DNA from: Candidatus Parcubacteria bacterium
GTDB lineage: Bacteria; Patescibacteriota; Minisyncoccia; Phycocordibacterales; UBA2100
Reading direction: 5' to 3'
Assembly (NCBI GenBank): GCA_041168925.1
Contig: JBEEJY010000008.1
Coordinates: forward strand, 1 to 61,499
Length of the DNA stretch: 61,499 bases
In this document: positions 10,659 to 55,074 of the stretch, piece after piece
How positions within the stretch are numbered: position 1 is the stretch's first letter
Layout: the number at the start of each line of letters is the position of its first letter
Position numbers and translations under genes: made by a program
The notes under the pieces: generated by a model
Seen by the model: the letters and a program-made list of their open reading frames with translations, nothing else
What the model was told of the DNA's origin: nothing
Database searches by the model: none

Positions 10659-10666
10659 ATTTCCAT

Positions 10667-39461: not shown

Positions 39462-39537
39462 CGAAATTCCACCCTGCGCCAAAGGCGCAACATCACGCAG
39501 TAGCTGAAATTCCAGCACAGGGTACAATGCCGAGGAC

Positions 39538-40293
39538 ATGCTATCGGCGTTTTTCCATGCCGCGATCTACGACCCGCTCTACAACGGGCTTGTTTTTTTG
39601 GTCGGCGTCGTGCCCGGCAACGACATAGGGCTCGCGGTCATCCTTCTCACGATCATCGTGCGCATCATTATCTATCCGCTCTCGAAGCGCGCTATCCTCT
39701 CACAGCTTGCGATGAAGAAAATCGCACCGGAGGTGGAAGAGCTTAAAAAGAAGTATAAAAATAATTCCGCGGAACAGGGAGCTGCGATTTTCGCGCTCTA
39801 CCGGGAGCGCGACATACACCCTTTCGCGAGTTTCGGGCTTCTTCTCGTCCAATTCCCCATCCTGATCGGTCTATACTTCGTCTTTCTCAACAAAACTTTT
39901 CCCGGCGTCGATCCGACGCTCCTCTACCCGTTCATAGAGGCGCCGTCGCACATCAACATGCAGTTCCTCGGCCTATTGGACATGTCGGCGCATCACAATA
40001 TCCCTCTTGCGATACTGGTCGCCCTCTCGCAGCTCGTCTACTCGCGCCTTTCCATGGGCCCCCGCGAAAAGATCCTCGATTCGACACCGGTCGAAGCGAC
40101 CCTTTCAGGAGATATGGCGAAGAGCTTCGATCTTCAAGCACGCTACGTCTTTCCGCTCATCTTCGGCGTCATTTCCTACTCAGTCGCCGCCGCCGCGCCG
40201 CTCTACTGGCTCACGAGCAATCTCTTCATGATCGGACAAGAACTCGCGATGGGTAAACGATTCACGACTCAACTGCGGTCTGAGCGCGCGTAA
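39538..40293 (+). CDS. yidC: Membrane protein insertase YidC (short Gram-positive/CPR form)
   Basis: AVILLTIIVRIIIYPLSKRAILSQLAMKKIAPEVEELKKKYKNN...; 5 TM helices. Confidence 0.85.
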   Translation: MLSAFFHAAIYDPLYNGLVFLVGVVPGNDIGLAVILLTIIVRIIIYPLSKRAILSQLAMKKIAPEVEELKKKYKNNSAEQGAAIFALYRERDIHPFASFGLLLVQFPILIGLYFVFLNKTFPGVDPTLLYPFIEAPSHINMQFLGLLDMSAHHNIPLAILVALSQLVYSRLSMGPREKILDSTPVEATLSGDMAKSFDLQARYVFPLIFGVISYSVAAAAPLYWLTSNLFMIGQELAMGKRFTTQLRSERA

Positions 40294-40329
40294 TTTTGAA
40301 AAACAAGTCCAAGAGAGTATAGTGCCCCG

Positions 40330-40800
40330 ATGGACGTTGAGACCATCGTGCGCGAACTCCTTGATGCCGCCGGTGTCGCGTACTCTGGTGTCGAAAAGAG
40401 TGTGCTTGCGGGGCAAGAAATCTACGCGATCAAAGCGGAGGATGCGGCGCGCGCGCTGATCGGCGGACACGGAGATACCGTACACGCACTCGACCTCTTG
40501 GTGAAAAAAATATACGAGAAGCGCCACCCCGCGGAAGCGGGCGACGAGGAAGATCGCGGCCCGATGTTTCTTATCGATGTCAATGACTATCGCACGAAGC
40601 AGATCAAAGATCTGCAGACAAAAGCGCTCATGATGGCGGAGCGCGCGCGCAGCTTCCAGTATGACGTCGAGCTCTCGCCCATGAGCTCGTACGAGCGTCT
40701 CATCATTCATACGACGCTCCAGAACGCGCCGAACGTGAAGACGGAATCGCAAGGAGAAGGGCGCAATCGGCGTGTGGTTATCAAGTACTCGGCCGCATAG
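40330..40800 (+). CDS. jag: Jag/KhpB-like RNA-binding protein (KH plus R3H)
   Basis: C-terminal R3H: SSYERLIIHTTLQNAPNVKTESQGEGRNRRVVIK. Canonical position after yidC. Confidence 0.75.
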   Translation: MDVETIVRELLDAAGVAYSGVEKSVLAGQEIYAIKAEDAARALIGGHGDTVHALDLLVKKIYEKRHPAEAGDEEDRGPMFLIDVNDYRTKQIKDLQTKALMMAERARSFQYDVELSPMSSYERLIIHTTLQNAPNVKTESQGEGRNRRVVIKYSAA

Positions 40801-40801: not shown

Positions 40802-41356
40802 TTACGGACTTATCGGCTCCGGATTAAATGTGTCGCAACCGTTGACCCCGCATCCATTGATGTAAGGATCAAAAACGTCCGGCGTAAAGGCGTTGTCCGC
40901 TCTGGGAGTTTGGGACTGTTGTAACCTGCCGGGCTCCTGCGCTGGAGCAGGGTTGTTCTTGATCGCGTCGAGCGCCCTGAGTGAAAGTATGTCCGGATTG
41001 ATTTGCCGGAGAATAAGGTAGATTGCGAGTAAGAGTATCAAGCCCAAGGTCACATCGCCTATGATTTGCTTTGCCTCCCCCTTGTGGCTCCACATGTCGG
41101 ATTGGCCCATGTAGAGGTATCCCGCGTAAGCAAGCCGCAATACGCCGCCGATCGCGCCGACGATAAGCGCAAACGTAAACAACTTTTGAACAAAGTCCGC
41201 GAGATTGCCGGAGTCGTAGAGTCCGGAGAGACGAGGTGATTGCGAGATGTCGGCAAGCGGCACGAACGTCCCCTGCGCCAGAGCAATGGTTGGTATCGCG
41301 CATCCTGCCGTGATGCAGGCGATGCGCAAGAGAGAAATATGAGAACGCAGTTTCAT
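40802..41356 (-). CDS. VirB2/TrbC-shaped protein (signal peptide plus two hydrophobic helices), last gene of the T4SS-like operon
   Basis: MKLRSHISLLRIACITAGCAIPTIALAQG signal. Helices FVQKLFTFALIVGAIGGVLRLAYAGYLY and IIGDVTLGLILLLAIYLIL. The assignment is by architecture only. Confidence 0.4.
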   Translation of the reverse strand: MKLRSHISLLRIACITAGCAIPTIALAQGTFVPLADISQSPRLSGLYDSGNLADFVQKLFTFALIVGAIGGVLRLAYAGYLYMGQSDMWSHKGEAKQIIGDVTLGLILLLAIYLILRQINPDILSLRALDAIKNNPAPAQEPGRLQQSQTPRADNAFTPDVFDPYINGCGVNGCDTFNPEPISP

Positions 41357-41359
41357 ACG

Positions 41360-42736
41360 TTAGCGCTCGAGGCGCAAGATCCAGAGCGTGTCATCGATGG
41401 CGTTTATAAACGCGATGTGAGTCCCCGTCGTGTCGATCACGGGGTCTTTTACGTCGATCGTGTTTTCAGGCGAGTAAACAAGCTCGGCCGTGCTCGAGCT
41501 CACGCCGACGCGCCAGATCGCATCGGACGTGTGGACGATCCCGCGGTACCAGTTGTTGAGAAAATCTCCGGTGGGAGCGTTTTGGGGAACCGCGCAATAC
41601 GCGAGCGTGCCGGACGGCGCCCACGCGCATTTATCGGCGACCGTTTTTATAGAAAGCCGTATCGGCGCGTCATTTTGGCTTCGCGTGAGAAAGAACGCGA
41701 GGTTGCCGCTGGATGATTGTCCCGAGAGGAAGCCCCCCGACGCGCGCGGCAGCAAAGTGAGTCCGGGTGCGTGCGTGATCGGTTCGAGCGTGCCGTTTTG
41801 CACCTCATACGCGTAGCCGGACAGACCATCGGATGCGGACTGTACGAGGATGATCTTGTCGGCTTTCTGAGTGGCGCCCGGAAGGTAATAGAGCCGCCAA
41901 TTGGGAAGCGCTGAAGAAAAAAGTCGTTTCTGCTGCGAGCCATCCGCCTTGGCGCGCCAGAGCGCTATCCCACGGTCATCTCGCGCCAGGTACACAATCG
42001 AGTCAGAGACAGGACTGGCCGCGATGCGCACAATATCGGGCGCGAGTTGGACGCCGCTTAATGATTTAAGAGACGAGGTCGCGCTGATCGACGTGCTCGT
42101 CGCGAGTATTCCCGAGAACGTGCTGATGAGTCCTGAATTTTCGATGGAGCGTTCGAGAATCCGATCTCGAGAGAACGCTGCCTCGTATATTTTTGGCATG
42201 AGGGTTCCTGAGAGTCTTGTTATTACTCCGCTCATAGGATCCGCCTCCATCACATTCCCGCTGGAGCGCTCAACGAAGCGCACCCGGCCATTTTGCATGA
42301 ACGCAACTCCGGCGACGGGCGCTGCATGCGCATGCCACAAGAGCGGCGGCAACTGCACCGCGGGAGCGGCCGAACGCGTATCCGCAGAAGGGGCACCGAA
42401 CTGTCCGGATGTGCCGATAGCGCCGAAAGAGTTCGACGCCGGTGGCTGCGAAGCCGAGCTGCCCGTTCTCGCGAAGAGCGCATTGAAGACCCGGGCGAAT
42501 AAACCGGGATTGTTTCGCGATCCGTCGTTGAAGGTGGTCACGCCCGACGCCGTGCCGCTTCTGCTTGGCGCAGCTTCACTTGGGGAAGAAGCGCCGCTCG
42601 TGAATCCCCGGGCAGCGTCAGCCTGTTGGGTCGCTTTCGTTTGCGTGCGTATGAAAAAGTACCAGCCCGAAAGCGCGCCGAGAATAACGACGATCAGCGC
42701 AACAAGCAGATACGTGATAATGGAACGTACGCGCAT
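41360..42736 (-). CDS. Hypothetical bitopic protein with an extracytoplasmic beta-propeller-like domain (T4SS-like operon)
   Basis: MRVRSIITYLLVALIVVILGALSGWYFF anchor, then repeated beta-strand-rich segments (TolB-like feel). Start chosen 1 nt after the upstream stop. The ORF track starts at 42769. Confidence 0.55.
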   Translation of the reverse strand: MRVRSIITYLLVALIVVILGALSGWYFFIRTQTKATQQADAARGFTSGASSPSEAAPSRSGTASGVTTFNDGSRNNPGLFARVFNALFARTGSSASQPPASNSFGAIGTSGQFGAPSADTRSAAPAVQLPPLLWHAHAAPVAGVAFMQNGRVRFVERSSGNVMEADPMSGVITRLSGTLMPKIYEAAFSRDRILERSIENSGLISTFSGILATSTSISATSSLKSLSGVQLAPDIVRIAASPVSDSIVYLARDDRGIALWRAKADGSQQKRLFSSALPNWRLYYLPGATQKADKIILVQSASDGLSGYAYEVQNGTLEPITHAPGLTLLPRASGGFLSGQSSSGNLAFFLTRSQNDAPIRLSIKTVADKCAWAPSGTLAYCAVPQNAPTGDFLNNWYRGIVHTSDAIWRVGVSSSTAELVYSPENTIDVKDPVIDTTGTHIAFINAIDDTLWILRLER

Positions 42737-42737
42737 A

Positions 42738-43787
42738 TCAAAAACCACCGAACGGATTTTGACCCGCATCGCCGCTCGAGAAGATCACGTTCCACGCCGA
42801 CTTCGCGTCGAGATAGAAGTTGGTTTTGTGCGTGAGCTCGAGGCCGATCAGCGCTCTCCCCGTCGAATTTTTCGCGTTGATGGTAATTTCGTTTTCCTGC
42901 CCGCTCCGCACGGGAATTAGAGCGTCGTTGACCCTCCACTCGTATGAGAGCGCCGGATCATGCGCGGTGCGTGCTTGTGCGAAATACGGGATCGCGGCGA
43001 ACGCCATCTCGGAGCCTGACACGAAGCTCGTTGCGCCAAACGCCTGGCCGAGGCGGATCCCATAGAGCGGATGGTCTTCATAGAGGACGAGCGTCGGCTG
43101 AATCGACGGAATCGTCACCGATGCTTTCCCGGAGAACAACCCGTCGCTCGATCGCGCCTCGACTGATATCGTATCGGAGCCGTAGAGGTGCGGTGAAGGG
43201 ATGCTTACGATGAAATGGCCTTTGCCCGAAACGCTGCCGATCGCTTCGCCATCGCGCTTCCATATGTACGTCAGGTCGGGCGCGCTCACCGGTCCGCTCG
43301 GGCCGCGAAAATATGGAATAGCCTCGACGATCAGATTGGTCCCTGCGGATGCGAGGGCGCGGCCCCGGTAAAAGGGCGGTACGTAAGAATCAGAATCGAC
43401 GAGCAGATCGAGCCCGGTCGGCACGATGGTCGCTTTCGCCGAGGCGGCGATATTGTTTGCCGTCGCGATATTTACCTCGACCTCTTTTTGCGTCCCAAGC
43501 GCGCCTGTTGAGACATCGACGCTTGTCACCCCGATGCCTTGCGCGATCGCTTTTCCGTCGACGAGCCAGACGATCGAGCTGGTATCGAGATCGAGCGCCG
43601 AACTTGTGAGCTCGAGGTGAACAGCCTCATTGGCGCCAGGGTAGACAGGCGAGGTCGTGATCATGGCCGCGCGCTCGATTCCGATCAAGGCGCCTTGGGC
43701 ATGGAGGCGTGTCGGCGTGAGTATGGGCGCCGCGGCCGCGAGAAAAACGAGCCCCATAAGTCCAGCGTGCGTGCGGGCGAACTTCAT
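42738..43787 (-). CDS. Hypothetical secreted protein with three Ig-like repeats (T4SS-like operon)
   Basis: Signal MKFARTHAGLMGLVFLAAAAPILTPTRLHAQG. Three repeats carry the W-x-x-DG-x-x-I signature (IVWLVDGKAI, YIWKRDGEAI, YEWRVNDALI). Confidence 0.6.
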   Translation of the reverse strand: MKFARTHAGLMGLVFLAAAAPILTPTRLHAQGALIGIERAAMITTSPVYPGANEAVHLELTSSALDLDTSSIVWLVDGKAIAQGIGVTSVDVSTGALGTQKEVEVNIATANNIAASAKATIVPTGLDLLVDSDSYVPPFYRGRALASAGTNLIVEAIPYFRGPSGPVSAPDLTYIWKRDGEAIGSVSGKGHFIVSIPSPHLYGSDTISVEARSSDGLFSGKASVTIPSIQPTLVLYEDHPLYGIRLGQAFGATSFVSGSEMAFAAIPYFAQARTAHDPALSYEWRVNDALIPVRSGQENEITINAKNSTGRALIGLELTHKTNFYLDAKSAWNVIFSSGDAGQNPFGGF

Positions 43788-45742
43788 TGTTTCGGTTGGG
43801 CGCTCGCTGATGCGGCCGCGGCGCTGAAATTGACCTGAGAAGCCTGCACGCGCGCCGCTTGCGATGCGCCGCTCGCTTCGCCTTGTATGGCTCCTTCGAG
43901 TACCTTTGCGCCAAGCGCCGCTTCCTTCGCTCGTTCGAGCTCCTGTTTTGCCTTTTTGATGGCGAGGATTTGGGACGGGTCCGAGGTGATGATCTGGTCT
44001 TCGGTGTACGAGGCGATGACCTTGATGGCGACGTGTTTCAGCCCCGCGAAGAAAATACCCTCCCCCACATCGGACTCGAGCAGCAAGTATTTTTCTTCGT
44101 CCGACAGCTTGAATGTCTGCTGAATGAGATCGACGGATGTCGGCGATTGTCGCAGCAGCAACTGGATAGACGAGTTCGTTATCATCGCGGCGCCGTACGG
44201 TGAAGTCAGAAAGTCGTTTACGTCTTGGGTGATCGTGGAAAGGCCGAGGTAGTATTTACGGCCGCGCTTGGCGATGCCGAAGAGGAAGCTCGCCGTATCT
44301 TGCGATTTCATCATCCACCACGCCTCGTCGATGACGAGGAGGCGCTTGCGCAGCTCTTTGCGCACCGTGTTCCAGATGTGGTGCGTGATGATGTACATCG
44401 CGACGGGCTTCAGGTCGTCTTCCATGTCTCGCACCGAAAAGACGATGAGCTTTTTATTCATGTCGACGTTGGTCGGGCGGTTCATAAAGCCCGACCAGGT
44501 GCCCTTGGTGTACTTTGAGAGGCGCTGCACGAGGGATTCGGAACCTTCCATGCCCGAGAGCACGAGCTCGAAGTCGGACAGGAGCGGCGGCTCGATCGCG
44601 GCGAAGTTCGCGTCCGCGGTAATATCCTTCAGCGCGTACGTTTCGGTGATCGCCTTGTCGATAATGGCGTCTTCCTCCGGCGTGAGTCCGCCGAGCATGA
44701 TGCGGAAGAGCCCGACGAGCGTGATGATGTTGTTGCGTAGCACGTCGGAGGGGTTTTCATCTTCACGCGGTATCGGCAGGTCGAACGGATTGATGTGGTG
44801 CTCGGAAGAGAGCGAAATGTTGAAGTAGCGACCGCCGACCGTCGTTGCAAGATATTCATACTCGCGTTCCGGGTCGATGACGATGACCTCGGTGTCAAAC
44901 ATGAGGCTGCGGAGAATCTCAAGCTTCGTCGTGTAACTTTTGCCGGCGCCCGATTTTGCGAATGTCACCGAGTTGTAGTTTTCGAGCGAAAAACGATCGA
45001 AGAGAATGAGCGAGGAATTGTGGCGGTTGATGCCGTAGAGAATGCCGCGATCCGAAGTGAGGTCGAATGAAATGAACGGGAAGATCGAGGAGAGTGGCGC
45101 AGAGTTGAGCTTCGTGTGTACGTTGATCTCGTCGGTTGCGAGCGGTAGGACCGAACGGAAGCCTTGCTCCTGCTGGAAAAGCGCGGGACGAATGTACACA
45201 AGCCGCGATTCGAGAATGGAGCGCACCTCGGTTTCCACCTTGTCGATCTCCTCTCGCGTATTGCCGTAGATCGTGAGGTAGAGTCCGATTTCGAAGATGC
45301 GCTCCTGCGCTTGTTGCAGCGAATCACGCAGCTGCTCCAGGTCGGAGTAGGCGGTATCGAGCATCGGGTCGCGCACCATGCCTTTTTGCTCGCGCGTCGC
45401 GATCTGGCTCTGTACTTCGGCGACTTTTTTCTGGAATTTGCGGAGCATCTCGTTGGTATCCATCGGATGGATGAAGATCGAAATATCGAGCACCTTGTCC
45501 ATGTTGATGATCGGCGCGAACCAGCCGGTCGTGAGAAAGCGCGGATACGAGATGACGAAGAAGGTGCGCGCGATTTTCTCGCCGAGATCTAGCTCTCGCG
45601 AATTGATGCGAAGCGCGTGAGGCGCGATCACGTCTTGCAGGTCGAGTACTCCCGATTTGTAGATTTCGGAAGGGAGGACGGGCAGCACGTTGGGCGATTC
45701 TTCTTTTTTCTTTCCAAACGGCAGAAGGTCGAGAAGTCCCAT
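43784..45742 (-). CDS. virB4: VirB4/TrbE-family type IV secretion ATPase
   Basis: Walker A FAKSGAGKSYTTK, Walker B LLVIDEAWWMM, N-domain ARTFFVISYPRFL, 652 aa. ATG at 45740-45742, 4 nt after the upstream stop. Confidence 0.85.
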   Translation of the reverse strand: MGLLDLLPFGKKKEESPNVLPVLPSEIYKSGVLDLQDVIAPHALRINSRELDLGEKIARTFFVISYPRFLTTGWFAPIINMDKVLDISIFIHPMDTNEMLRKFQKKVAEVQSQIATREQKGMVRDPMLDTAYSDLEQLRDSLQQAQERIFEIGLYLTIYGNTREEIDKVETEVRSILESRLVYIRPALFQQEQGFRSVLPLATDEINVHTKLNSAPLSSIFPFISFDLTSDRGILYGINRHNSSLILFDRFSLENYNSVTFAKSGAGKSYTTKLEILRSLMFDTEVIVIDPEREYEYLATTVGGRYFNISLSSEHHINPFDLPIPREDENPSDVLRNNIITLVGLFRIMLGGLTPEEDAIIDKAITETYALKDITADANFAAIEPPLLSDFELVLSGMEGSESLVQRLSKYTKGTWSGFMNRPTNVDMNKKLIVFSVRDMEDDLKPVAMYIITHHIWNTVRKELRKRLLVIDEAWWMMKSQDTASFLFGIAKRGRKYYLGLSTITQDVNDFLTSPYGAAMITNSSIQLLLRQSPTSVDLIQQTFKLSDEEKYLLLESDVGEGIFFAGLKHVAIKVIASYTEDQIITSDPSQILAIKKAKQELERAKEAALGAKVLEGAIQGEASGASQAARVQASQVNFSAAAASASAQPKQ

Positions 45743-45746
45743 ACTA

Positions 45747-46415
45747 CTATTGTTGATTCTGGAGCGGCATCGGCTTGCCTTCTTCGCCCGGATTGAACAT
45801 CTTGTACATGAGCTCAATCGCTTCTTCCGTGCCGAGCTGTACCGTGCGCACGCCCGTGCGGACCAGTCCTTGCTGCACGATCGAGATGCGCTGTTCGAGC
45901 TGCGTCACATGTTCCTCGAACGTCATATTCGATTCCTCGTCGCCGGTTTTTTTCTTGCCGAACGGAAGCATCGAGAGCGCTCCTTTGCGGGTGATCTGGA
46001 GCGATGGCGAGTACGGCACGACGACGAAGAAATTCTTCGTCATGATGTTCGCCGCCTCGGTGAAACTCTTGATGAACTCGATGTATTCGCGAATCTGGAT
46101 GCGCATCAGGTCGTCGAGCTGCTGTTTATATTGCACCTCGAGCGTCGCGACGTACGGCCGGATGTCGAGCATGCGCGATTGCACGAAGATCTGGCACGAA
46201 AAATCGAGCGAGTTGAGGAAATTCTGGAACTGCACGATAAAAGCCGTCTGTTCATCTTCAGATTTGAGCGCGAAGTTAAGCGACGAGGCGAGCAGTATCG
46301 CGCGCAAGCCGCCGTCTTTCATCACGATGACGCCGTCACGCACTTCGGAAATGGGAAGAAAGTCCTGGGTGGATTTTGCGCTTGCGCGCGGGTTTGCAGC
46401 TGCGGTCGTGGGCAT
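45747..46415 (-). CDS. Stand-alone VirB4 N-terminal-domain-like protein (no ATPase domain)
   Basis: DFLPISEVRDGVIVMKDGGLRAILLASSLNFALKSEDEQ...FLNSLDFSCQIFVQS follows the N-domain pattern of Gram-positive VirB4 proteins. It shares the LPFGKKK motif with the start of the adjacent VirB4. Confidence 0.5.
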   Translation of the reverse strand: MPTTAAANPRASAKSTQDFLPISEVRDGVIVMKDGGLRAILLASSLNFALKSEDEQTAFIVQFQNFLNSLDFSCQIFVQSRMLDIRPYVATLEVQYKQQLDDLMRIQIREYIEFIKSFTEAANIMTKNFFVVVPYSPSLQITRKGALSMLPFGKKKTGDEESNMTFEEHVTQLEQRISIVQQGLVRTGVRTVQLGTEEAIELMYKMFNPGEEGKPMPLQNQQ

Positions 46416-46417
46416 AC

Positions 46418-46942
46418 CTATTGGTCGGTGTCTTCCGCGAAGTGACGCAAAACTTGCTGCGGGGTGCGAACCGGGACGACGATGTCTTGGTCTGTCTTGT
46501 AAATGTGGCTTTCACGGTCATTCTCGAGCCCGGCCGCGATGCGCTCTTTGATATCGAGGCTCCACGCGAGTTCGTGGAGCTTACTCTCGGAGAGTTTCGG
46601 CACGTACACCTCGGCTTTTCTCTGGTCGAGCGCCCCGATCACGGGCGGGACAACTTTCTTTTTGCGCTCGTTGTTCCACAGGTACAGTTTATTGCGCGCG
46701 AAAAAGAAGAACGCGCTCTCGAGTGCGAGGATAAAGGGGCGTCCATTCCACTGGAAAAACGCGAGCGCGGCCGCGAGCCCTCCGATAACGACAATGAACG
46801 GCGCAGCTACGACAAGCGGGAGCGTGCGCCACAGAAGGTAGCAGGCACCCGCTCCGCCGCCCATATAGATGAATTGTTTGAACGTGAGCGGGCCGAAGAT
46901 CTTGTCCTCGACCTCGATGAATTGGGGCACTTGGAATTGCAT
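46418..46942 (-). CDS. PrgI-family (VirB3-like) small membrane protein
   Basis: MQFQVPQFIEVEDKIFGPLTFKQFIYMGGGAGACYLLW followed by 2 TM helices, the characteristic PrgI-family N-terminus. Confidence 0.6.
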   Translation of the reverse strand: MQFQVPQFIEVEDKIFGPLTFKQFIYMGGGAGACYLLWRTLPLVVAAPFIVVIGGLAAALAFFQWNGRPFILALESAFFFFARNKLYLWNNERKKKVVPPVIGALDQRKAEVYVPKLSESKLHELAWSLDIKERIAAGLENDRESHIYKTDQDIVVPVRTPQQVLRHFAEDTDQ

Positions 46943-47062
46943 AGCGCGTTTACTCGACAACCTCGCCAGCAACAAAAGCGGTGGCGTGAGGTCACCGGAG
47001 TACCACAATCATATCACGCAACATTTGGGGTGTTCTGTCAGTTGTGCACGGAGAACGCCGCA

Positions 47063-47683
47063 TCAGGCGGGCGGTTCCCGATAGGGGTCGTCTTGTACGT
47101 TCGCACGCGCGGTGCTCGGTTGGCCCGATTGGTATGCACTCGATACAGGCGCCCGCTTCGCGGTCGTTGTCGGCGCTGGCGCAGGTGGGGTTGCAGGAGC
47201 AACCGTCGGCGCGACAGAAAGTGTAGGAGCGGGAGGAGCGTTCTGCGTTCCTCCTTGTGCGGCTGACTCCCCAGATTGGCCTGCAAGCGCCTCTTGACGC
47301 GCGGTCTCAACGTCGCTTACCTCGGCCGCCTTTGCCTCAGGGTGCTCGAGCAGCCGCTCAAGCTCGCCGCGTATCGGCTCGAAGACGGTTTTCGAAATGT
47401 CTTCCGCAAGCGCCGCCGCCTCCTCGTCCGTCACACCGACCTCGCTTTTAATGTTGTCTTTCAGTTTGTCGGTCGGCTGGAATCCGAGGAGCGTGAGCAT
47501 CACTTCGTTTTCGAGAAGCTGCCATTGATCGAGATGCAGCTTTTGCGTCTCGGCAAGATCGCGCAGATGCTTCTGCACATCCGCGGACGTGATCGCGTCT
47601 TGCACGATCTTTGGCAGCGTCTTGAACCGCTCCGCAAGCTGCGCGTTCAATTCAGTTTCATGCCCCTGTATTGCCGTGTCCAT
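47063..47683 (-). CDS. Hypothetical soluble protein with a Pro/Ala/Thr-rich tail (T4SS-like operon)
   Basis: 206 aa, no TM helix. C-terminal APPAPTLSVAPTVAPATPPAPAPTTT. It starts 3 nt after the upstream stop. Confidence 0.5.
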   Translation of the reverse strand: MDTAIQGHETELNAQLAERFKTLPKIVQDAITSADVQKHLRDLAETQKLHLDQWQLLENEVMLTLLGFQPTDKLKDNIKSEVGVTDEEAAALAEDISKTVFEPIRGELERLLEHPEAKAAEVSDVETARQEALAGQSGESAAQGGTQNAPPAPTLSVAPTVAPATPPAPAPTTTAKRAPVSSAYQSGQPSTARANVQDDPYREPPA

Positions 47684-47686
47684 ACA

Positions 47687-50290
47687 CTAGTGACCGCTCG
47701 TTGGAGCTGCGGGCGTGCCTGGAGCCTCCGGCGCCGCTCCACCGGAACTCTCGGTCTCTTTTTTCAGATAATCTTCCAGCGCTTTTTTAATGCTCTCGGT
47801 TCCCGCGCTCGTTTTGATTTTACTGCGCGCCGCCTTTGCCACGCGTTCTCCGGTTTCTGTAAATTGAGCAATGGGACCGGCCATCTGTCGTCCGACTTCT
47901 CCGGCAACGTTCTGTCGCGCCTCCTCCATTCCTCGTAGCTTTTCTCTTGTCCGTTCTTCTGATATCGAGACCGTTTCGCGATTATGAGATTCGAGCTCGT
48001 TGCGTGCCGCATTGTCTGCAGTCTCAGCTTCCTCGCCCGACATAATGACCGTTTTGCCTCTCACATTCGCTTCCCGTTGAGGTTTATTTACATTTTTAAG
48101 TTTTGTGTCGATCTGCTGCAAGGCCATTCGAGCTTGTTCTATGTGTTGTGATTGTTCGTTCAGTTTAAGTGCACGGTCAGTTTCGATCTGTTGACGCTCT
48201 TGGTCGGTTTGAGCACCCGTACCAAGCTGTGAGAGCCGCTGTTCGAAATCTCGCTCCATGGTGCGTTTCGTTTCAACCGCTCGTTGATAATCGGTGTCTT
48301 TTGCCTCGCGCTCCTGCTTCAATTGATCCTTTTCGACTGCGATGACCTGCTCGATCGCTTCCCGCATTTCTTTAGTGCTCTGTTTCGTCGCCTCAAGCGC
48401 TTCTTTTCTGCCGCGACGTTCTTCGGAGACAGTCATGCCGGCTTCCTCGCGTATTTTCTTCTTCTGCTCGTCGCTGATCTGCGGCGTCGCTTTTTCTGCT
48501 GCTTCTGCTTTCGCTTTGACTTTCCCGGCGTAGCTCAAATCACCTTTCGCTGATGCGCCTGCGGCGAAGCCAGTCAGCCCGGCTTGTTTGGCCGCAGCTT
48601 TCATGGCCGCAGTGTCCATCATATTCATCTTGCTGTCAGCCAGTTCTCCGAACCGGCCGGCCCATGTAGCGCGCCGAGCTCCAGCTCTCTTCAGCCTGTC
48701 CGCTTCACGTTGTGCCTGAGCCGCGAGTGCATAATTGCCCGCACCTCTTGCGGCTTTTGCGCCTCGTTCGGCAGCCTCCTGCCGGCCCAACCTTTCTTGG
48801 TACTCTTTCCCGGTGAGACCTCCCTTGATCCCGAACGCCAGACTACCGAGTGTATTTCTAAGCAGGGGCGCAAGCGCGAATCTTGAGCCGAGGGCGACCG
48901 CGAGCCCTGCGGGCATCGCTGCCCAGTCAAACCCTGCGATCTTGCTCGAAAACACGCTTGCGATCCGGAAAGAAATAAAGAGAAGCCCGAGCACGATGAC
49001 GTACACGAAAAGCGCATCGAGATTCGCCGCCTTCGTAGGTTCCGCGAGCAGACCGCCCAGCGTTCCCGTCGCTTCCGGCTTTATCGCATGCCCGATCGTG
49101 AGCGTGACCCAAATCGCAAGCATCAGTATCGGAGCAAGCGCGGCGCACCTCACAAGCGAGCTCCACCACGTACTCCATCCGTAGCTGCTCCCCGCCCATT
49201 TCGGCACAAGATAGGAAGCGAAGGCGAGCGAGGCGGTGACCAGAAGGAAAATGAAGAGCAAAGCCCGCGCAAAAAGGAGAAAGCATCCGTATAAAAGGAT
49301 GGCCGCCGCCGCGAGGAGAACCGTTGCGGAGACAAGGCCGTGTAAAAGGGCGAGCAAACCGTTGGCACCGCTGTAGTTATTCGTCGCCGTGCCGAATGCG
49401 GCGCTGGAGAGCGCTTTGTACGTGTCTGCGAGACTCGTAACACCCATCAGGTTGATAAACTGTCCCGATATCCCGGACTGGGAGAATTCCGTCGCGGTTG
49501 TCCCGGTCGATGCGTCTTCCCCGCTCGGAAGCCTGGCTGCGTTGTAGAACTGCGTCGCCGTATAATTCGACGCGTCGATAATGACTTTCGTGAAGAGCAG
49601 GCTGAAGTTGATGAGCACCGCGATAATCAAGACGTTGGCGATAAGGCGTTTTTGCCCGAACTCTTTCAATCCGAGGATTATCGATATCGCGATAAAAGTG
49701 AAAATGCCGATGATGAGAATATTCGCGATATCGCGAAACGCGGCCCACGCCGTCTCGATCCCGGATTTGATCGCGGTGCTGTAAAGAAACTGACTGAAAT
49801 TGACGATCGTGTGATCGACAAGTACGTTGAAGAGCAATCCGGCCACGGCCAAGAGCCACGCCGTGACTGAAATGAGAGCGGTTCCGATCAGGACGCTCGC
49901 CATCCTCCCGAAGCAGGTGAAACCTATCCAGTCGGTCCAATGCTGACAAGAGTTTCCCGCACTCTCTACCGCCTTCTGCGCTTTCGCTTCATCCGCCTGC
50001 TGCGCATCGGAGCAGTTCTTGAATTGATCGCATTGGGAAAGCGCGATCAAAATCGCGCGGTCGGCGGTGCTGCACGGACCGCTGCCGTCCATACAGGCGG
50101 GATCAACGTCTTCGATGGTACAGGTGCCGAGATTGAAGCCGAATGCGCTCGTGATGTTGTTCTTGACGCAACCCAAAGCGGACGCGGTATGCATGCCCGA
50201 AAACGAAAACGGAAGTAAAACCGCCGTGATCGCGACGAGGCCGGTAAGAAGACCGAGCTGCAATTTCCTTCTTGTCGTCAGTCGTTGCAT
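47687..50290 (-). CDS. Giant polytopic membrane protein, VirB6/TrbL-like candidate, with a Cys-rich ectodomain and a roughly 350-aa charged coiled-coil C-terminus
   Basis: 867 aa with a signal/anchor. The N-terminal ectodomain has 7 Cys, followed by at least 8 hydrophobic helices. The C-terminal K/E/R/A/Q-rich region is predicted helical. Confidence 0.5.
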   Translation of the reverse strand: MQRLTTRRKLQLGLLTGLVAITAVLLPFSFSGMHTASALGCVKNNITSAFGFNLGTCTIEDVDPACMDGSGPCSTADRAILIALSQCDQFKNCSDAQQADEAKAQKAVESAGNSCQHWTDWIGFTCFGRMASVLIGTALISVTAWLLAVAGLLFNVLVDHTIVNFSQFLYSTAIKSGIETAWAAFRDIANILIIGIFTFIAISIILGLKEFGQKRLIANVLIIAVLINFSLLFTKVIIDASNYTATQFYNAARLPSGEDASTGTTATEFSQSGISGQFINLMGVTSLADTYKALSSAAFGTATNNYSGANGLLALLHGLVSATVLLAAAAILLYGCFLLFARALLFIFLLVTASLAFASYLVPKWAGSSYGWSTWWSSLVRCAALAPILMLAIWVTLTIGHAIKPEATGTLGGLLAEPTKAANLDALFVYVIVLGLLFISFRIASVFSSKIAGFDWAAMPAGLAVALGSRFALAPLLRNTLGSLAFGIKGGLTGKEYQERLGRQEAAERGAKAARGAGNYALAAQAQREADRLKRAGARRATWAGRFGELADSKMNMMDTAAMKAAAKQAGLTGFAAGASAKGDLSYAGKVKAKAEAAEKATPQISDEQKKKIREEAGMTVSEERRGRKEALEATKQSTKEMREAIEQVIAVEKDQLKQEREAKDTDYQRAVETKRTMERDFEQRLSQLGTGAQTDQERQQIETDRALKLNEQSQHIEQARMALQQIDTKLKNVNKPQREANVRGKTVIMSGEEAETADNAARNELESHNRETVSISEERTREKLRGMEEARQNVAGEVGRQMAGPIAQFTETGERVAKAARSKIKTSAGTESIKKALEDYLKKETESSGGAAPEAPGTPAAPTSGH

Positions 50291-50291
50291 A

Positions 50292-51968
50292 TCATTGCTG
50301 CCACGCGCTCTTCCATGCGTTGACGACGCCGGGATTGTTGACGTTGCACCAGCCGGCCGGATTGCTCGGACTCACCGATCCCGAAGGCGCTCCGTCGGCC
50401 CACGATTGCACGGTGTTTTGCACAAGAGTAGACATCGTGCTCTGCACATTGGTGTACTGCGTCGTGACATTTGCAAGATCCGGCTGGATGTGAAGGGCGT
50501 GTTGGTAGACGAGGGCGTCGAGCTGCTGGAGCGCGATACGCTGCGCGTCGAGCGATTGAGTGTTGGTGATTCCTTGAATGATGCCGTCGATGAGGCTTAG
50601 TGCTCGGCGTGACGCGTTGATACTGGCAAGCGCCGCGTTCGCAAGCGGGGTGATCTGCGAATTGACGATCGGTTGCGAGAAAGCGGTCGAGGTGGCGATG
50701 CGGAAGCGCGCGCCGCCGGAATCGGTGCACACGTTATCAGCCCCGGGCGGATTACCGGTACACACGCGCTGAGTGATGAGATTCCAACACTGGTTTTCGG
50801 CGCTTCGCAGTTGTGCGATGGTCTGGGTAAGCACCGACGCTATACCGTTGACCGCTTGGAAATATTGCGCTTCGACTTGCCGCGCCGCGGAAAGGATCTG
50901 GATCGCGGCGTTCGCCGCGGCGTTGCGCACGCCCTGCGAGGACTCGGCGGCGACCTGGTCGAGATACGAGGGCTGGCCGCCGAAGCTTTGCGTCAAGCCC
51001 GCAAGTCCCTGGCTGTCGGAGATAATCTGAGTGGTCATACCCCCGTAGAGCGCACTGATCATCTGGCCGATATCGTTGGCGCTCTCAAGCTGGCGTACTG
51101 GCGAATCGAGAATCGTCTGGAAGGACTCTTGCACCGTGATCGACGGCGTGAGCACGTTCTGCAGGAGGGGATCGTCGTTGTTGTCGGTTACCGCATAATA
51201 GCCGTTGCCCCATTGCCACTGATCGCGCTGATACGCGACGGCTGTTGCGATACGTACTTCGGCGAGCTGTCGGGAATTGTTGTATGCGATAAGCGGGTTG
51301 CATGAGCTGCCGAGCGACAATACCGCGTCCCACACGTTTGACGGATTCCCTCGCAGCATCGCCGAGAGGTCGCCTTTGTATGGGCACGCGAGCGCTTCCT
51401 GCGCGTTTCTTGTCTGCGCTTCGTATGATTGCGCGAGTGCGCGCTGAACCGGCGATTTGAGAACCGGGTTCAGACTGTTCATCTCATTGCGCAAGAACGG
51501 CAAGAACGCGGCGTCGCTCACGTTCAGCTCCTCCTTCCGCTCATTGACGACGTACAGCGGATTTCCGTTGCGAGCGGTTTTGATCGCGATCACCGCGCGC
51601 TTGCCGAAGGCCGCTGTAGCCGCTTCGCGCTCGCGATCCACGACTTCGCGCAGCACGCATTCTTTGTAGACCAGAATGCCGGTATTGAGCTCCACGGTCG
51701 CGTCCGCGACCGGCACGTACGCTCCGCCGCCCGCGGTCATGGAGCCGATCGACATCGCGTATGCGCCGTTTAAGTTGCAATCGAAGATTCCCTGCCTTTG
51801 GAAACGATAGGGCGCGTCGGCCGATGGCGTTTGCGCGGTCTGATCTCCTTGATCGCCAGCCGGATCGGTCTGCGCGTACGAAGCGAGCGGCGCGATTAGG
51901 AAAAGCGCGAGGAGCGCAGCGATATATCTCATGCCCCGAAGTGAAATTTCAGCTCGCGCACTTTTCAT
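50292..51968 (-). CDS. Hypothetical secreted protein (558 aa), T4SS-like operon
   Basis: Signal ...MRYIAALLALFLIAPLASYAQ. No motif recognised. ATGA overlap with the upstream gene. Confidence 0.55.
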   Translation of the reverse strand: MKSARAEISLRGMRYIAALLALFLIAPLASYAQTDPAGDQGDQTAQTPSADAPYRFQRQGIFDCNLNGAYAMSIGSMTAGGGAYVPVADATVELNTGILVYKECVLREVVDREREAATAAFGKRAVIAIKTARNGNPLYVVNERKEELNVSDAAFLPFLRNEMNSLNPVLKSPVQRALAQSYEAQTRNAQEALACPYKGDLSAMLRGNPSNVWDAVLSLGSSCNPLIAYNNSRQLAEVRIATAVAYQRDQWQWGNGYYAVTDNNDDPLLQNVLTPSITVQESFQTILDSPVRQLESANDIGQMISALYGGMTTQIISDSQGLAGLTQSFGGQPSYLDQVAAESSQGVRNAAANAAIQILSAARQVEAQYFQAVNGIASVLTQTIAQLRSAENQCWNLITQRVCTGNPPGADNVCTDSGGARFRIATSTAFSQPIVNSQITPLANAALASINASRRALSLIDGIIQGITNTQSLDAQRIALQQLDALVYQHALHIQPDLANVTTQYTNVQSTMSTLVQNTVQSWADGAPSGSVSPSNPAGWCNVNNPGVVNAWKSAWQQ

Positions 51969-52777
51969 AATGGCAGTTTGCTCTTCTCGTATGAGACGAG
52001 CGCGCGAAACGCGACAAGCATGTCGGTCTCGGCCTGATTGTATGAACGAAGGAGCGCGACGGAGGCAAACGGGTCGCTCGCGTTGGCCGCCATTTCGTTG
52101 AGGGTAGCCCCGAATTGCCGCATCGCGTTTAAGATCGCGACGTGATACGGAGATGCGTCCGCGGGTACGACGATATGTGCGCTTGCCGTGGCCGCATCGG
52201 CGTAATCTTTTGCGACGGCGCGAAGCCGCGCGAGGTACAACGAATCTTTCGTTTCGACATACTGCCCGAAGAGTTCGAATTCGGGGCGCGTGTTTTTCAT
52301 GAGCGGTGCAAGCGACCCCTGGAGATCTTTGCGGTACGCGAGCATGCGCTCATACGACGTGTCGGGAGTCGTCTTGATATCGGCCGAGGTGAAGGGCACG
52401 TATGCGACGCTGGGCTTCAGCGTGCTCGCCATCGCTTCGGCGGTTTTTTCTCCCCTATCCGGCGTATACGATCCTTGGCTCTCCAGGGTGACGTAGCGCG
52501 TAATGAGGTTACCGAGGACGGCGTTTCCGAGTGGAGTCGCTTCCGGGCTCCACAGCGCTTCGTCTTGCGCCGTTTGGTCCGTGAGGCCAGGCGGGTTTTC
52601 CTTCTGCGGATCGGAGCTCGCGCTCGAAGCGCTCGCCACATAGGTGGTCGCGAATCTTTTTTCGGCAATGGTTTGCTCGATCTTCCAACCCGCGACTGCT
52701 AAAAGCGCGATCACAGAAAGTGTCGCGGTGGCACCAATAGCCGAAAACCTCCCGGCGCCTGAATTCCGAGTTTTCAC
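51965..52777 (-). CDS. Hypothetical bitopic protein, VirB8-shaped (N-terminal TM plus roughly 220-aa ectodomain); GTG start
   Basis: GTG at 52775-52777 preceded by TATAAT-N7. Anchor IGATATLSVIALLAVAGW. Confidence 0.5.
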   Translation of the reverse strand: MKTRNSGAGRFSAIGATATLSVIALLAVAGWKIEQTIAEKRFATTYVASASSASSDPQKENPPGLTDQTAQDEALWSPEATPLGNAVLGNLITRYVTLESQGSYTPDRGEKTAEAMASTLKPSVAYVPFTSADIKTTPDTSYERMLAYRKDLQGSLAPLMKNTRPEFELFGQYVETKDSLYLARLRAVAKDYADAATASAHIVVPADASPYHVAILNAMRQFGATLNEMAANASDPFASVALLRSYNQAETDMLVAFRALVSYEKSKLPL

Positions 52778-52895
52778 GCATTCAATTATAGCGTGGCCCG
52801 CAGGCTACGGTTTGTATTTTTCGCAAGAATAGGGACAACGGGGAGCACTCAAGCGGTCAATCTCTCCGAAGGCGAACGGCTCCCGATTTTCTCGC

Positions 52896-53888
52896 CTAGA
52901 GGCCAATGGGCGTGAACGCGAACACACTGCCGGGATCGGTTTGGTTGAATTTCACCGCGTAAGCCTCGAAAAAACTCGCCAACGCGACATAATTTTTCCC
53001 GAATTCGTCGACCGAATTATCGTATGTCTGAATTCGCGCGAGAAAATCCTCATCGCTCGTTGCAGCAGGTATCAGTTCGAGATTCTTGCCGATCTGGATA
53101 TAGCTTTTCGCGAGCGCAAGGTGCGGTTCAAGCGCCTGGTCGGGGATGGTGTCCATATCCATGAGATTTTGGCCGACATTTTTCAGCGCTTTCGCGAGCG
53201 ATACGACTGCGGCGGCTTTTTGCGGATCGCTGCGGTCTTCGGCCTGGTTTTTTAGCGTCTGTGCCATCCCGAAGTGAAGATCTTCGAACGATTGTACGTA
53301 AGAGCCCGTTTCGTTGCCGTAATCGTAGAGTTTTTGCTGGAGATCGGAGCGGTTCTCTTCTGGCGCTGCGGTCGACACGAGCCCCTGTGGCAGGAACGAG
53401 TATGCGTCGGAAAGCGAGCCGTCACTTCCGGACGGCGGCCCGCTCGACTGCGTCTTCGTGCCGCCGGAAAGGGATTTGACGAACGCATCGAAATCAAATG
53501 CGGTTCCGACATTCGCATTCGCGTCTTCGCCATTGTTGCTCGTACCGACATCGGGCGCGGCAGGAGGTACATAGGTATAAGGTGTCGCGCTCTGTATCTG
53601 CTCCATGATGCTATCGGGCGCTTGCGCGATAATCGGGGCGCGGCCATAGGAGGTCGTGTCGAGCGCCTGCAGATTCGCGCCGCCCCATGCACCCGCGTCT
53701 GATCTTTGCGGCGCGGTGGAAGATTTCGAGAAAATGAAGACTCCTCCGATAAGGAGAAGCCCGGCAATCGCCGCGGCACCGGCAAGATACGGATGCGCCG
53801 CGATCCAGCCGGCGCCACGCGGAGAAGAGGGCGGCGCAGGCGGCGACCCAAGACCGATCGAGTGTAAATCATTGCCTTGCGGCGGCAT
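52896..53888 (-). CDS. Hypothetical bitopic protein, first gene of the T4SS-like cluster
   Basis: ATG 53886-53888 preceded by TATACT-N7. MPPQGNDLH...AAHPYLAGAAAIAGLLLIGGVFIF anchor. Confidence 0.5.
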   Translation of the reverse strand: MPPQGNDLHSIGLGSPPAPPSSPRGAGWIAAHPYLAGAAAIAGLLLIGGVFIFSKSSTAPQRSDAGAWGGANLQALDTTSYGRAPIIAQAPDSIMEQIQSATPYTYVPPAAPDVGTSNNGEDANANVGTAFDFDAFVKSLSGGTKTQSSGPPSGSDGSLSDAYSFLPQGLVSTAAPEENRSDLQQKLYDYGNETGSYVQSFEDLHFGMAQTLKNQAEDRSDPQKAAAVVSLAKALKNVGQNLMDMDTIPDQALEPHLALAKSYIQIGKNLELIPAATSDEDFLARIQTYDNSVDEFGKNYVALASFFEAYAVKFNQTDPGSVFAFTPIGL

Positions 53889-53986
53889 GACACCAAGTAT
53901 ACCGCTCAACAGAGCGTGTGTGAGCGCTATACACAACCGCGCTCCTCTTGAGACACGTCATGGGTATAGGCTGTTAGAATAAGCGT

Positions 53987-54301
53987 ATGCGCTTCTTTGC
54001 AGCATCAGCGTTCGCAGCGGCCCTCTTCACCCCGCTTATAGCACTCGCGTTTCCCTTCGGCGGGCAGATTGGCATCGTGAAGCCCTGTTACAATCAGGCG
54101 ATTTACGCGAATCTCGGTCCGCCACGCGGAGGACCCTACATCTGGTCGACAGGAACGAAAACCTACCAGTTCGGGCCGCCGAGTCACGGAGGCCAGTGGC
54201 TCCTTGGTCTCGCGAGTGCGCCTTACTATTGCATCATCTCGATTCAGCCGATCATCGTCTGGCCGGGCACGTACATCACGATGATGGGCAGTAGTCGCTA
54301 A
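53987..54301 (+). CDS. Hypothetical small secreted protein (2 Cys)
   Basis: MRFFAASAFAAALFTPLIALA signal. TAGAAT-N6-ATG. Confidence 0.5.
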   Translation: MRFFAASAFAAALFTPLIALAFPFGGQIGIVKPCYNQAIYANLGPPRGGPYIWSTGTKTYQFGPPSHGGQWLLGLASAPYYCIISIQPIIVWPGTYITMMGSSR

Positions 54302-55074
54302 TGAGCGAGCGCTAGTTCCCGCGCCAGGCGCTTCCACGTCTGTAAATCGAGCTCCTCGGCCCGGTCGGTGTTCCCGAGCCACTTCGGAGCGTCGCCGAAT
54401 CGTTTTTTGAGATTTCCGCGGAGAATCTTCCGTTTGGAAGAAAATCCCGCCTTTACGACCGCGAAAAACTCCTCTTCGCTCGCGTCGTTGAAAAAATCTC
54501 TCGATATATCCGTGATAAGCAGAATGGCGGAGTCAACAGACGGCTGGGGATTGAAATTCCCTTTTGAGACCCTCGCGACGATCTTCGGAGTGCCGTATGC
54601 TTTGACCGAAAGAGAAAGGACGCTCTCTTTCCCGTTGCGCGCGACGATCCGATCCGCGACCTCTTTTTGCACGAGGAGCGCCATTGCGCGCGGCTGGCAG
54701 TTCGCCGTGAGAAAATATCGAATAATGTCACCCGTGATATAATACGGGATATTGGCGGCGACCACGTACGCTCCGAGATCCGACTCTTTGCCGTCGAGAT
54801 CGCGGATGTCGGCGGCGGCAAGAACCAGCCGCCCACGATCTATTTCGTTTTTAAATGTTTGTTCCAGTTCTTCGACAAGCCTCTTGTCTTTCTCGACCGC
54901 GACGACTCGCCCGCCCGTTCGGAGCAGTTCTTTTGTAAGCGCGCCCTTGCCGGGTCCGATCTCGAGTATCGTCTCGTTCGGCCGCACCGCTATAGCGTCC
55001 GCGAGCTTCTTCGCGGCCCACTGCCCCGTCAGAAAATGCTGGCCCAAGCGAGTGCCGCGTTTTTTCATGCTCAT
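54298..55074 (-). CDS. rsmA: 16S rRNA (adenine1518/1519-N6)-dimethyltransferase
   Basis: LGQHFL..., ILEIGPGKGALT SAM motif, VVANIPYYIT. The start overlaps the uvrD stop (ATGA). Confidence 0.9.
   Translation of the reverse strand: MSMKKRGTRLGQHFLTGQWAAKKLADAIAVRPNETILEIGPGKGALTKELLRTGGRVVAVEKDKRLVEELEQTFKNEIDRGRLVLAAADIRDLDGKESDLGAYVVAANIPYYITGDIIRYFLTANCQPRAMALLVQKEVADRIVARNGKESVLSLSVKAYGTPKIVARVSKGNFNPQPSVDSAILLITDISRDFFNDASEEEFFAVVKAGFSSKRKILRGNLKKRFGDAPKWLGNTDRAEELDLQTWKRLARELALAH

Follow-up and report, generated by a model that had tools for sequence, protein, structure and literature searches.

The window analysed here, i.e., the whole 61,499-nucleotide (nt) stretch spanning positions 1 to 61,499 of contig JBEEJY010000008.1 (assembly GCA_041168925.1, Candidatus Parcubacteria bacterium), carries at positions 40802–53888 a chromosomal, non-conjugative type IV secretion system (T4SS) cluster of eleven tightly packed minus-strand open reading frames (ORFs), near the replication origin of an ultra-small member of the Patescibacteria that is related to Candidatus Kaiserbacteria. 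The Patescibacteria account for a sizeable part of bacterial diversity and are unable to make nucleotides, lipids or the majority of amino acids. With a probability of roughly 80%, we read the cluster as a patescibacterial T4SS that derives from the monoderm mating-pair-formation (MPF) machinery of the MPF-FATA type, has lost conjugation, and provides a pilus or conduit to a host cell independently of a type IV coupling protein (T4CP). A first-pass annotation of the same DNA had already called the block T4SS-like, with a VirB4 ATPase, a PrgI-family N-terminus, a giant polytopic membrane protein, a VirB2-shaped protein and six proteins without a nameable motif, and this core interpretation was upheld; all eleven ORFs (numbered g1 to g11 by rising coordinate) were found again in place when re-derived from the sequence. 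Because these gene families are fully co-conserved in related genomes, the block is more than a chance arrangement.

Systems of this kind have been described before. An unusual Gram-positive-like T4SS with pilins and without a recognisable coupling protein or relaxase was reported in Southlakia epibionticum (locus SEML1_0006-0019; Wang et al. 2023, PMC10633639), and a saccharibacterium cannot grow epibiotically without its T4SS and pilin genes, a requirement that does not depend on ComEC (PMC10633639; PMC12857230). A survey of 3,035 Patescibacteria genomes found VirB4 in 2,417 of them, as a monophyletic clade nested in MPF-FATA, with TrsD as the most abundant associated component and with PrgI, VirB6 and VirB2-like pilins near virB4; VirB8 was almost undetectable outside ABY1, relaxases were rare, T4CPs were mostly distant, and the locus of Paceibacteria and Microgenomatia lay near dnaA, dnaN, rnpA, rpmH and ksgA (Quinonero-Coronel et al. 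2025, PMC12102498). A 2025 review classes these systems as a new T4SS category (PMC12857230). In a cultivated relative, tubes that are possibly T4SS pili reach into the host and host RNA is acquired, and the same 2026 preprint ties PNPase and VirB4 to feeding on host RNA (bioRxiv 10.64898/2026.06.21.733656). The system itself has therefore already been published (2023–2025; PMC10633639, PMC12102498, PMC12857230), and so have its location near the origin, TrsD, the pilin and the lack of a relaxase. The first-pass statement that composition and role are not established consequently stands for the role only, since composition, context and relaxase absence had been reported and essentiality had been shown in Saccharibacteria. 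The portions of these descriptions that were available gave no names for the accessory families, no class-wide invariance and no structural models, nor did they mention a paralogy of g10 and g11, the small neighbouring gene g12, the promoter pattern or the head-on orientation described below.

The identity of the cluster is anchored by g4 (43784–45742, minus strand; 652 amino acids, aa), a VirB4 ATPase devoid of its N-domain. Its translation carries both motifs on which the VirB4 call had been based (i.e., Walker A KSGAGKS and Walker B LLVIDEAW), and it matched NF045971, the Gram-positive CD1110 family, with an E-value of 2.3e-109 (366.7 bits, above the cutoff of 325), covering only profile positions 182–733. 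The nearest solved structure was PDB 4AG5 (the VirB4 C-domain of Thermoanaerobacter, Firmicutes; 2.8e-43), and TrwK was matched at 4.5e-7 over its residues 290–735. Among 72,556 plasmids, the best VirB4 proteins were 29–36% identical to g4 and all came from monoderms, whereas the closest 120 of thousands of relatives were 86–95% identical and were labelled Candidatus Kaiserbacteria, Paceibacterota or Patescibacteria. Judged by identity, g4 is thus nearest to the VirB4 proteins of Patescibacteria rather than to those of plasmids or of integrative and conjugative elements (ICEs).

The missing N-domain is encoded next door. The protein g5 (45747–46415, minus strand; 222 aa) had been annotated as a free VirB4 N-domain paralog, of which the N-domain part holds and the paralog part does not. 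It matched the N-termini of VirB4 profiles (VirB4_plasma, 1.4e-9; TrsD NF041427, 8e-6; positions 4–119 of the CD1110 profile), and the profile of its family (41 orthologues) aligned with residues 20–196 of an unsplit, 783-aa VirB4 from a C. perfringens plasmid (hhalign, 79.9%, 1.4e-5), on which the alignment of g4 begins at about residue 185. Since g5 and g4 cover complementary parts of the same profiles and of the same unsplit VirB4, g5 is a TrsD-type split-off VirB4 N-domain and not a paralogue; it was a separate ORF in 78 of the 78 related loci that reach that far. Immediately upstream, g6 (46418–46942, minus strand; 174 aa from the ATG at 46942) is a PrgI-family (VirB3-like) membrane protein that matched PF12666 at 1.1e-9 (39.1 bits, cutoff 27), and its N-terminus reads in translation as the first-pass annotation had quoted it (MQFQVPQFIEVEDKIFGPLTFKQF). 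The order PrgI, TrsD-like g5, VirB4, with gaps of 2 nt and 4 nt between them in the window, was kept in 50/50 complete loci of the comparative set introduced below.

Two further core components were recognised through their orthologues. The giant g8 (47687–50290, minus strand; 867 aa) had been credited with at least eight transmembrane (TM) helices, in agreement with the eight hydrophobic segments counted here, and it contains 10 Cys residues; its layout comprises an N-terminal signal or TM segment, a Cys-rich ectodomain, ~7 TM helices and a charged coiled-coil tail of ~420 aa. While the window protein itself had no Pfam match at E<=1, no PDB match and no tblastn match in the 72,556 plasmids, 5 of its 41 orthologues matched PF04610 (TrbL/VirB6; best 6e-5) and the topology fits, so that g8 is probably an extended VirB6-like protein. 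Likewise, g1 (40802–41356, minus strand; 184 aa), the sole pilin gene within the window, has hydrophobic segments at residues 9–27, 59–77 and 98–116, i.e., a signal peptide and two TM helices, as in the VirB2-shaped topology proposed for it earlier, together with conserved G..Y and QINP motifs and a short Cys-containing tail. Its own match to PF18895 (T4SS_pilin) was 0.024 (15.1 bits), under the cutoff of 26.6, and its orthologues matched this family in 36 of 39 cases and TrbC/VirB2 in 6 of 39.

The features shared by the Patescibacteria-clade T4SSs were found at this locus: a VirB4 of MPF-FATA ancestry, adjacent TrsD and PrgI, a probable VirB6-like protein and a VirB2-like pilin near virB4, no relaxase, no nearby T4CP, and a site by dnaA, dnaN, rnpA, rpmH and ksgA. 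The one difference, which is not essential, is the single pilin gene here, where Saccharimonadia and Microgenomatia have arrays of 2–11 pilin genes. Among the window's sizeable ORFs, Pfam scans yielded no relaxase, VirD4/TcpA-type T4CP, VirB11 or bounding integrase, and the JGI gene calls for the 8 kb beyond the right end of the window contained none of these either, so that the absence of VirD4/TraG, VirB11, relaxase and bounding integrase noted at first pass extends past the window; the relaxase and T4CP search covered ~70 kb of the 219,744-bp contig Ga0451756_0000003 (JGI 3300043432).

The likeness to the MPF-FATA systems of Firmicutes (CTn2/CD1110, pGO1/pSK41 Trs and pCF10 Prg) lies in the CD1110-family VirB4 with PrgI just upstream, in a separate TrsD-like N-domain as in the pGO1 subclass, and in a monoderm envelope without VirB7/9/10. 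The linkage of relaxase and T4CP to the mating-pair-formation genes, typical of these systems, is lacking here. In the nearest plasmid system (C. perfringens pSXP-169_2), the order is MobC-relaxase-DUF3801-VirD4-x-x-PrgI-VirB4(783 aa)-SLT hydrolase, with an unsplit VirB4 instead of the split one seen here; its MobC, relaxase, VirD4 (CD1115) and SLT hydrolase are all four absent from the cluster. Conversely, Gram-positive systems lack a VirB2-like pilin (PMC12857230), whereas one is present here. Moreover, the cluster differs from MPF-FATA systems by having no NTF2-like VirB8 analogue, and g3, g8 and g9 have no plasmid homologues. With the T4CP-less Bordetella Ptl, Brucella VirB and Helicobacter ComB systems, the cluster shares the absence of a coupling protein and relaxase and the presence of VirB2/3/4/6-type parts; these systems are, however, diderm and possess a VirB7/9/10 outer-membrane core and VirB8, none of which was detected here, and a sequence relationship to the cluster was found for VirB4 only.

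The homology of VirB4, PrgI and TrsD to Gram-positive conjugation parts could also mean that the block is a decayed or domesticated fragment of an ICE or plasmid that came to lie near oriC by chance, and a large serine recombinase beside a tRNA-Arg gene (2470–3990 in the window) could be taken as a trace of such an element. However, this recombinase is 37 kb distant and does not flank the cluster, which has the same GC content (0.556–0.597) as its surroundings; relaxase and T4CP are missing, and g3, g8 and g9 have no relatives on plasmids. Scanning one genome per GTDB species yielded 80 loci within the class Paceibacteria, with VirB4 75–94% identical; the titles of their records refer to Kaiser-, Taylor-, Nomura-, Campbell- and Adlerbacteria and in some cases to an 'uncultured Candidatus Saccharibacteria bacterium'. 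The order uvrD-ksgA-[cluster]-jag-yidC-rnpA (the latter on the other strand), dnaA-dnaN was the same in every locus with enough flank, and the site between ksgA and jag/yidC was identical in 80 species-level genomes.

The presence of the gene families was counted by jackhmmer in the 50 loci that are complete on the upstream side and the 66 that are complete on the downstream side. TrsD, PrgI, g7, g8, g9 and the g10/g11 family were present in 50/50 upstream-complete loci, g3 and g2 in 66/66 downstream-complete loci, and the pilin g1 in 63/66; in more distant lineages, the pilin gene is located between g3 and g2. The g10/g11 family was represented by a single gene in 33 of the 50 loci and by two copies in 17. 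Had the unassigned ORFs failed to accompany VirB4 in related genomes, as the first-pass annotation had considered, the reading as one machine would have suffered; the accessory families proved to be there in 50/50 or 66/66 loci. Within-locus median identities were 77% for VirB4, 61% for TrsD, 56% for DnaA, 50% for UvrD, 48% for KsgA, 41% for YidC and 40% for DnaN, while the exported T4SS proteins of the same loci reached 27–34%; given that the loci were picked by VirB4 similarity, the absolute values are biased and the comparison within loci is unaffected.

The fixed gene order, the co-presence of the families, the matching GC content and a VirB4 that is more conserved than DnaA together mark the block as a core locus that is inherited vertically and held under strong purifying selection while its surface evolves fast, and not as an ICE or a mobile fragment. 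The alternative of a conventional conjugative-element fragment, which had also been raised at first pass, is effectively refuted, as there is no integrase-bounded island with relaxase and VirD4, the GC content is like that of the flanks and the site is fixed in 80 genomes.

The remaining components are accessory proteins, among which g10 (51965–52777, minus strand; 270 aa, with a GTG start codon) and g11 (52896–53888, minus strand; 330 aa) had been described as two VirB8-shaped bitopic proteins. This description holds for their topology. In the confident AlphaFold2 (AF2) model of g10 (pLDDT 84.9, pTM 0.72), a disordered linker connects a TM helix to an ectodomain made of helices throughout, so that the likeness to VirB8 would be limited to topology, and Foldseek returned only generic 4-helix bundles for it (E>0.2), with no VirB8-like or VirB5-like match. 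A VirB8-like assignment of g10/g11 was accordingly rejected, the modelled fold being all-alpha, unlike the alpha+beta NTF2-like fold of VirB8. The two proteins are paralogous, as seen over their C-terminal ~140 aa (hhalign, 99.3%, E 2.9e-20; pairwise BLASTP E 0.005), with g11 representing a Kaiserbacteria-type duplication. An NTF2-fold VirB8 analogue (PrgL/TraM/TcpC) was not found elsewhere among the candidates either, with g10 modelled, g11 its paralogue, and g2 and g3 propeller-like and Ig-like by profile.

The product of g9 (50292–51968, minus strand; 558 aa, called by JGI as 546 aa from 51932) is a secreted, Cys-containing protein in which no nameable motif had been seen, and none was gained here. 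Its AF2 model, built from 101 sequences (pLDDT 78.7, pTM 0.63), is an elongated all-helical bundle with helices of up to 68 residues, for which Foldseek found nothing at E<0.1 in PDB and in the predicted viral structures of BFVD; by sequence, the protein had no PDB or Pfam match and no tblastn match in the plasmid set. A VirB5-like (TraC/VirB5) tip, a phage tail protein and a tape-measure protein were considered as identities for g9 and rejected on the outcome of the Foldseek comparison. As modelled, g9 and g10 rule out the expected VirB5-like and VirB8-like folds, with PDB and BFVD as the libraries searched. Some g9 homologues (P0122, P0128, P0142, P0226 and others) add a C-terminal FN3 or cupredoxin-like domain, and many g1 orthologues have long, variable, Cys-rich C-terminal extensions, which suggests that both proteins may present modular, surface-exposed ends.

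A signal-like segment at residues 8–26 and invariant tryptophans W74, W176 and W284 characterise g3 (42738–43787, minus strand; 349 aa). Its three ~105-aa repeats are mutually homologous (hhalign, 97.1/86.8/97.0%), as revealed by profile comparison where a BLASTP self-comparison showed none, and an Ig-like match to Hoc (4e-4) bears out the earlier description of a secreted protein with three Ig-like repeats; tblastn against the 72,556 plasmids gave no homologue. In g2 (41360–42736, minus strand; 458 aa, with an alternative start at 42769), described earlier as a TM plus propeller-like protein, the TM part is clear as a single segment at residues 6–24, and the propeller part draws on weak signals (TolB at 0.027–0.04, and PD40 and DPPIV_N in single members only), from which the ectodomain is probably a TolB-like beta-propeller.

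The soluble Pro/Ala/Thr-rich protein g7 (47063–47683, minus strand; 206 aa) lacks a TM segment, as stated at first pass, and combines a conserved helical N-domain with a Pro/Ala/Thr-rich linker and a C-terminal DPYREP motif in which D199-P-Y-R-E203 is at least 90% conserved. No Pfam relatives were found in scans of the window protein and all its orthologues, and no PDB relatives by profile. The near-invariant DPYREP motif could serve for docking or as a signal for secretion. When the profiles of g1, g2, g3, g7, g8, g9 and g10 were compared with PDB sequences, the weak TolB match of g2 and the Hoc Ig match of g3 were the only signals, the rest being empty or coiled-coil noise.

Together, these parts would form the following machine. 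PrgI (VirB3), TrsD, VirB4 and the VirB6-like g8 would constitute the membrane translocon, in which VirB4, with its N-domain supplied in trans by TrsD, would dock on PrgI and the VirB6-like protein and pull the Sec-exported pilin out of the membrane into a VirB2-type pilus or tube. The tube would be guided through the wall by g2, g3 and g10/g11, capped or extended by g9, and would touch or penetrate the host cell. Since the cluster comprises neither a coupling protein nor a relaxase, such a system would act without a T4CP, like Ptl, Brucella VirB and ComB.

Several points weigh against this interpretation of the cluster as a T4CP-independent conduit. No solved pilin was matched when the g1 profile was compared with PDB sequences, and the window's own g1 and g8 are below the Pfam thresholds, their assignment being transitive via orthologues. 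No VirB8-like or VirB1-like protein was recognised among the eleven cluster genes, and the roles proposed for g2, g3, g7 and g9–g11 follow from topology and position. A coupling protein may be encoded elsewhere in the genome, as VirD4 homologues occur in most Patescibacteria, usually far from virB4 (PMC12102498). Finally, the direction of transport and the cargo are pure inference. On the evidence of the literature, the uptake of nucleic acids or cytoplasmic material from the host would be the favoured, tentative option, export of effectors a somewhat less likely one, and a function in adhesion only would be less likely still.

An uptake function could go as far as a ComB-like or archaeal Ced-like machine importing DNA or RNA as a nucleotide source for an organism unable to make nucleotides. 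We consider this rather less probable than not. It agrees with the lack of T4CP and relaxase, as in ComB, with the role proposed in PMC11665869, with a PNPase gene ~12 kb off on the same contig, and with the acquisition of host RNA by the cultivated relative, whose tubes are perhaps T4SS pili (bioRxiv 10.64898/2026.06.21.733656). The ATPase g4 also matched the archaeal CedB profile NF041017, weakly (1.3e-8, 34 bits) and far under its cutoff of 700, so that it does not qualify as a CedB-type ATPase. Moreover, none of the cluster's products was recognised as a DNA-binding protein or a nuclease, and ComEC of Southlakia is dispensable whereas its T4SS is essential (PMC12857230), so that classical transformation is not the essential role.

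That the cluster instead exports effector proteins independently of a T4CP in order to manipulate or lyse the host cell, like Ptl or Brucella VirB, seems unlikely to us. T4SSs without a coupling protein do have precedents (PMC12102498), protein export was suggested by Wang et al. (PMC10633639), the soluble g7 with its C-terminal DPYREP could be a substrate or adaptor, and fast-evolving extracellular components fit a host interface. Yet no gene for an effector-like toxin or enzyme is linked to the cluster, and Ptl-type systems carry Sec-delivered periplasmic cargo, for which no candidate was identified here. More speculatively, g10/g11, g9, g7, g3, g2 and perhaps g12 could make up a Paceibacteria-specific extracellular module without structural counterpart in described T4SSs, which, with the trans-split VirB4 and the VirB2-like pilus, would define a distinct T4CP-less subclass that draws in nucleic acid from the host cytoplasm; we regard this as improbable.

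The gain from this locus is not a new kind of system. It is a class-wide parts list for Paceibacteria, consisting of ten gene families with a conserved VirB4 and a fast-evolving surface, to which two confident structural models without a match in PDB or BFVD and conserved leaderless-type promoters are added. The T4SS of Patescibacteria has proved essential in the single species in which this was examined, and the parts named here are concrete targets for genetics, pull-downs and cryo-electron tomography in the few cultivable Paceibacteria-host pairs.

With regard to expression, the first-pass annotation had proposed a single translationally coupled operon. The junctions re-derived from the sequence are consistent with coupling within blocks: ATGA overlaps occur at 43784–43787 (VirB4 stop and g3 start) and 51965–51968 (g10 stop and g9 start), and gaps of 1–4 nt at 41356/41360, 42736/42738, 45742/45747, 46415/46418, 47683/47687 and 50290/50292, all as reported before. 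Two intergenic gaps are larger, i.e., ~120 nt between g7 and PrgI (46943–47062) and 118 nt between g11 and g10 (52778–52895). A promoter scan placed a –10 box TATACT at 53896–53901 (minus strand), 7 nt upstream of the g11 ATG, and a second –10 box, TATAAT, is located at 52785–52790 (minus strand), 7 nt upstream of the GTG of g10, which is the first gene of the ancestral unit. Both boxes had been predicted at first pass and both are conserved in relatives: TATA-like boxes are found 5–12 nt before the g11 ATG in close relatives, and TATAMT-N6/7-GTG before g10 is conserved in loci L001–L023 of the 80-locus set.

More generally, a TATA(A/C)T box 6–8 nt before an in-frame start precedes the first gene of the block (the g10/g11 family) in 42 of 72 cases versus 2.4 expected from shuffles, the PrgI orthologues in 41/75 (3.3 expected) and the g3 orthologues in 29/75 (3.0 expected). 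At the other block genes, the frequency of such boxes was near background, and PrgI and g3 of the window itself have no strict match. This geometry, often combined with GTG, suggests mRNAs of the leaderless type. Since such boxes precede g11 and g10, and PrgI and g3 in relatives, a single operon of 11 genes is doubtful, and the pattern suggests several transcription units instead, each with translational coupling among its own genes. Transcription would then probably start at the leaderless-type promoters of g11 and g10 (as well as PrgI and g3 in relatives), with coupling within each block.

Next to the eleven genes, a conserved twelfth had been overlooked. This gene, g12 (53987–54301, plus strand), lies between ksgA and g11, divergent from g11, and encodes a small secreted protein of 104 aa with the motifs FPFGG...CYN...GPPRGG...GQWLLGL...YYC and two conserved cysteines. 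Both JGI and Logan annotate it as a gene, and it had no Pfam match; in the corresponding place, tblastn detected it in 20 loci (33–82% identity) and jackhmmer in 25/50. It is a conserved positional neighbour by these criteria, and perhaps a candidate member of the T4SS.

None of the eleven cluster genes qualified as a VirB1-like hydrolase in profile scans. However, a LysM-LysM-M23 peptidoglycan peptidase (57399–58328, plus strand; Pfam LysM x2 and Peptidase_M23), a candidate VirB1-type wall-opening enzyme, is encoded 3.5 kb upstream of the cluster, beyond ksgA (54298–55113) and uvrD, and in the 6 loci with a long enough flank, a gene of this kind occupies that place upstream of uvrD-ksgA in unchanged orientation. 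LysM/M23-containing VirB1 candidates have been reported near virB4 in Paceibacteria (PMC12102498); the peptidase is a neighbour here and a candidate member only.

On its other side, the cluster is followed by jag, yidC and rnpA (39126–40800), dnaA (37468–38835, minus strand) and dnaN (36151–37248). The first-pass annotation had placed the cluster about 2 kb from dnaA/oriC. The distance of 2 kb between dnaA and the 3′ end of the cluster is correct, while oriC was not located, as the 12 near-consensus DnaA boxes in the window are not clustered at dnaA; the local cumulative GC-skew minimum falls at ~34–38 kb. As first noted, the T4SS block is transcribed toward dnaA and the rpmH-rnpA-yidC-jag block runs in the opposite direction; ksgA and uvrD share the orientation of the T4SS block, and the arrangement was the same in every related locus reaching dnaA. 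If oriC is at dnaA, the block is head-on to a rightward replication fork.

Beyond the right end of the window, the next 8 kb encode DksA/TraR, PNPase, TerC, S15, RarA and others. PNPase (14661–16847 of locus L081) is accompanied by the DksA/TraR zinc-finger protein, and its proximity to the T4SS block may be coincidental. Within the window, the ORFs recognised by Pfam also include DNA-metabolism genes. A low-GC stretch at 1–4009 (0.50–0.52 vs. ~0.58) contains the large serine recombinase mentioned above (2470–3990, plus strand), the end of whose ORF overlaps tRNA-Arg(tct) at 3934–4009, and an unannotated 448-aa ORF (1120–2466, minus strand); this stretch may be a small integrated element that has nothing to do with the T4SS. 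The regions 5512–6633, 10631–11092, 11643–16845 and 28920–30701 hold dispersed type IV pilus genes, encoding PilM, a PilB/T2SSE ATPase and a prepilin that carries an N-methylation motif, together with two proteins of 807 and 834 aa without Pfam match that have an N-terminal 'GASILAAL' hydrophobic segment and are possibly giant pseudopilins. Lastly, a 942-aa protein encoded in a second low-GC stretch (0.52; 21231–24059, plus strand) contains an LCAT/PGAP1-like alpha/beta-hydrolase (lipase) domain.

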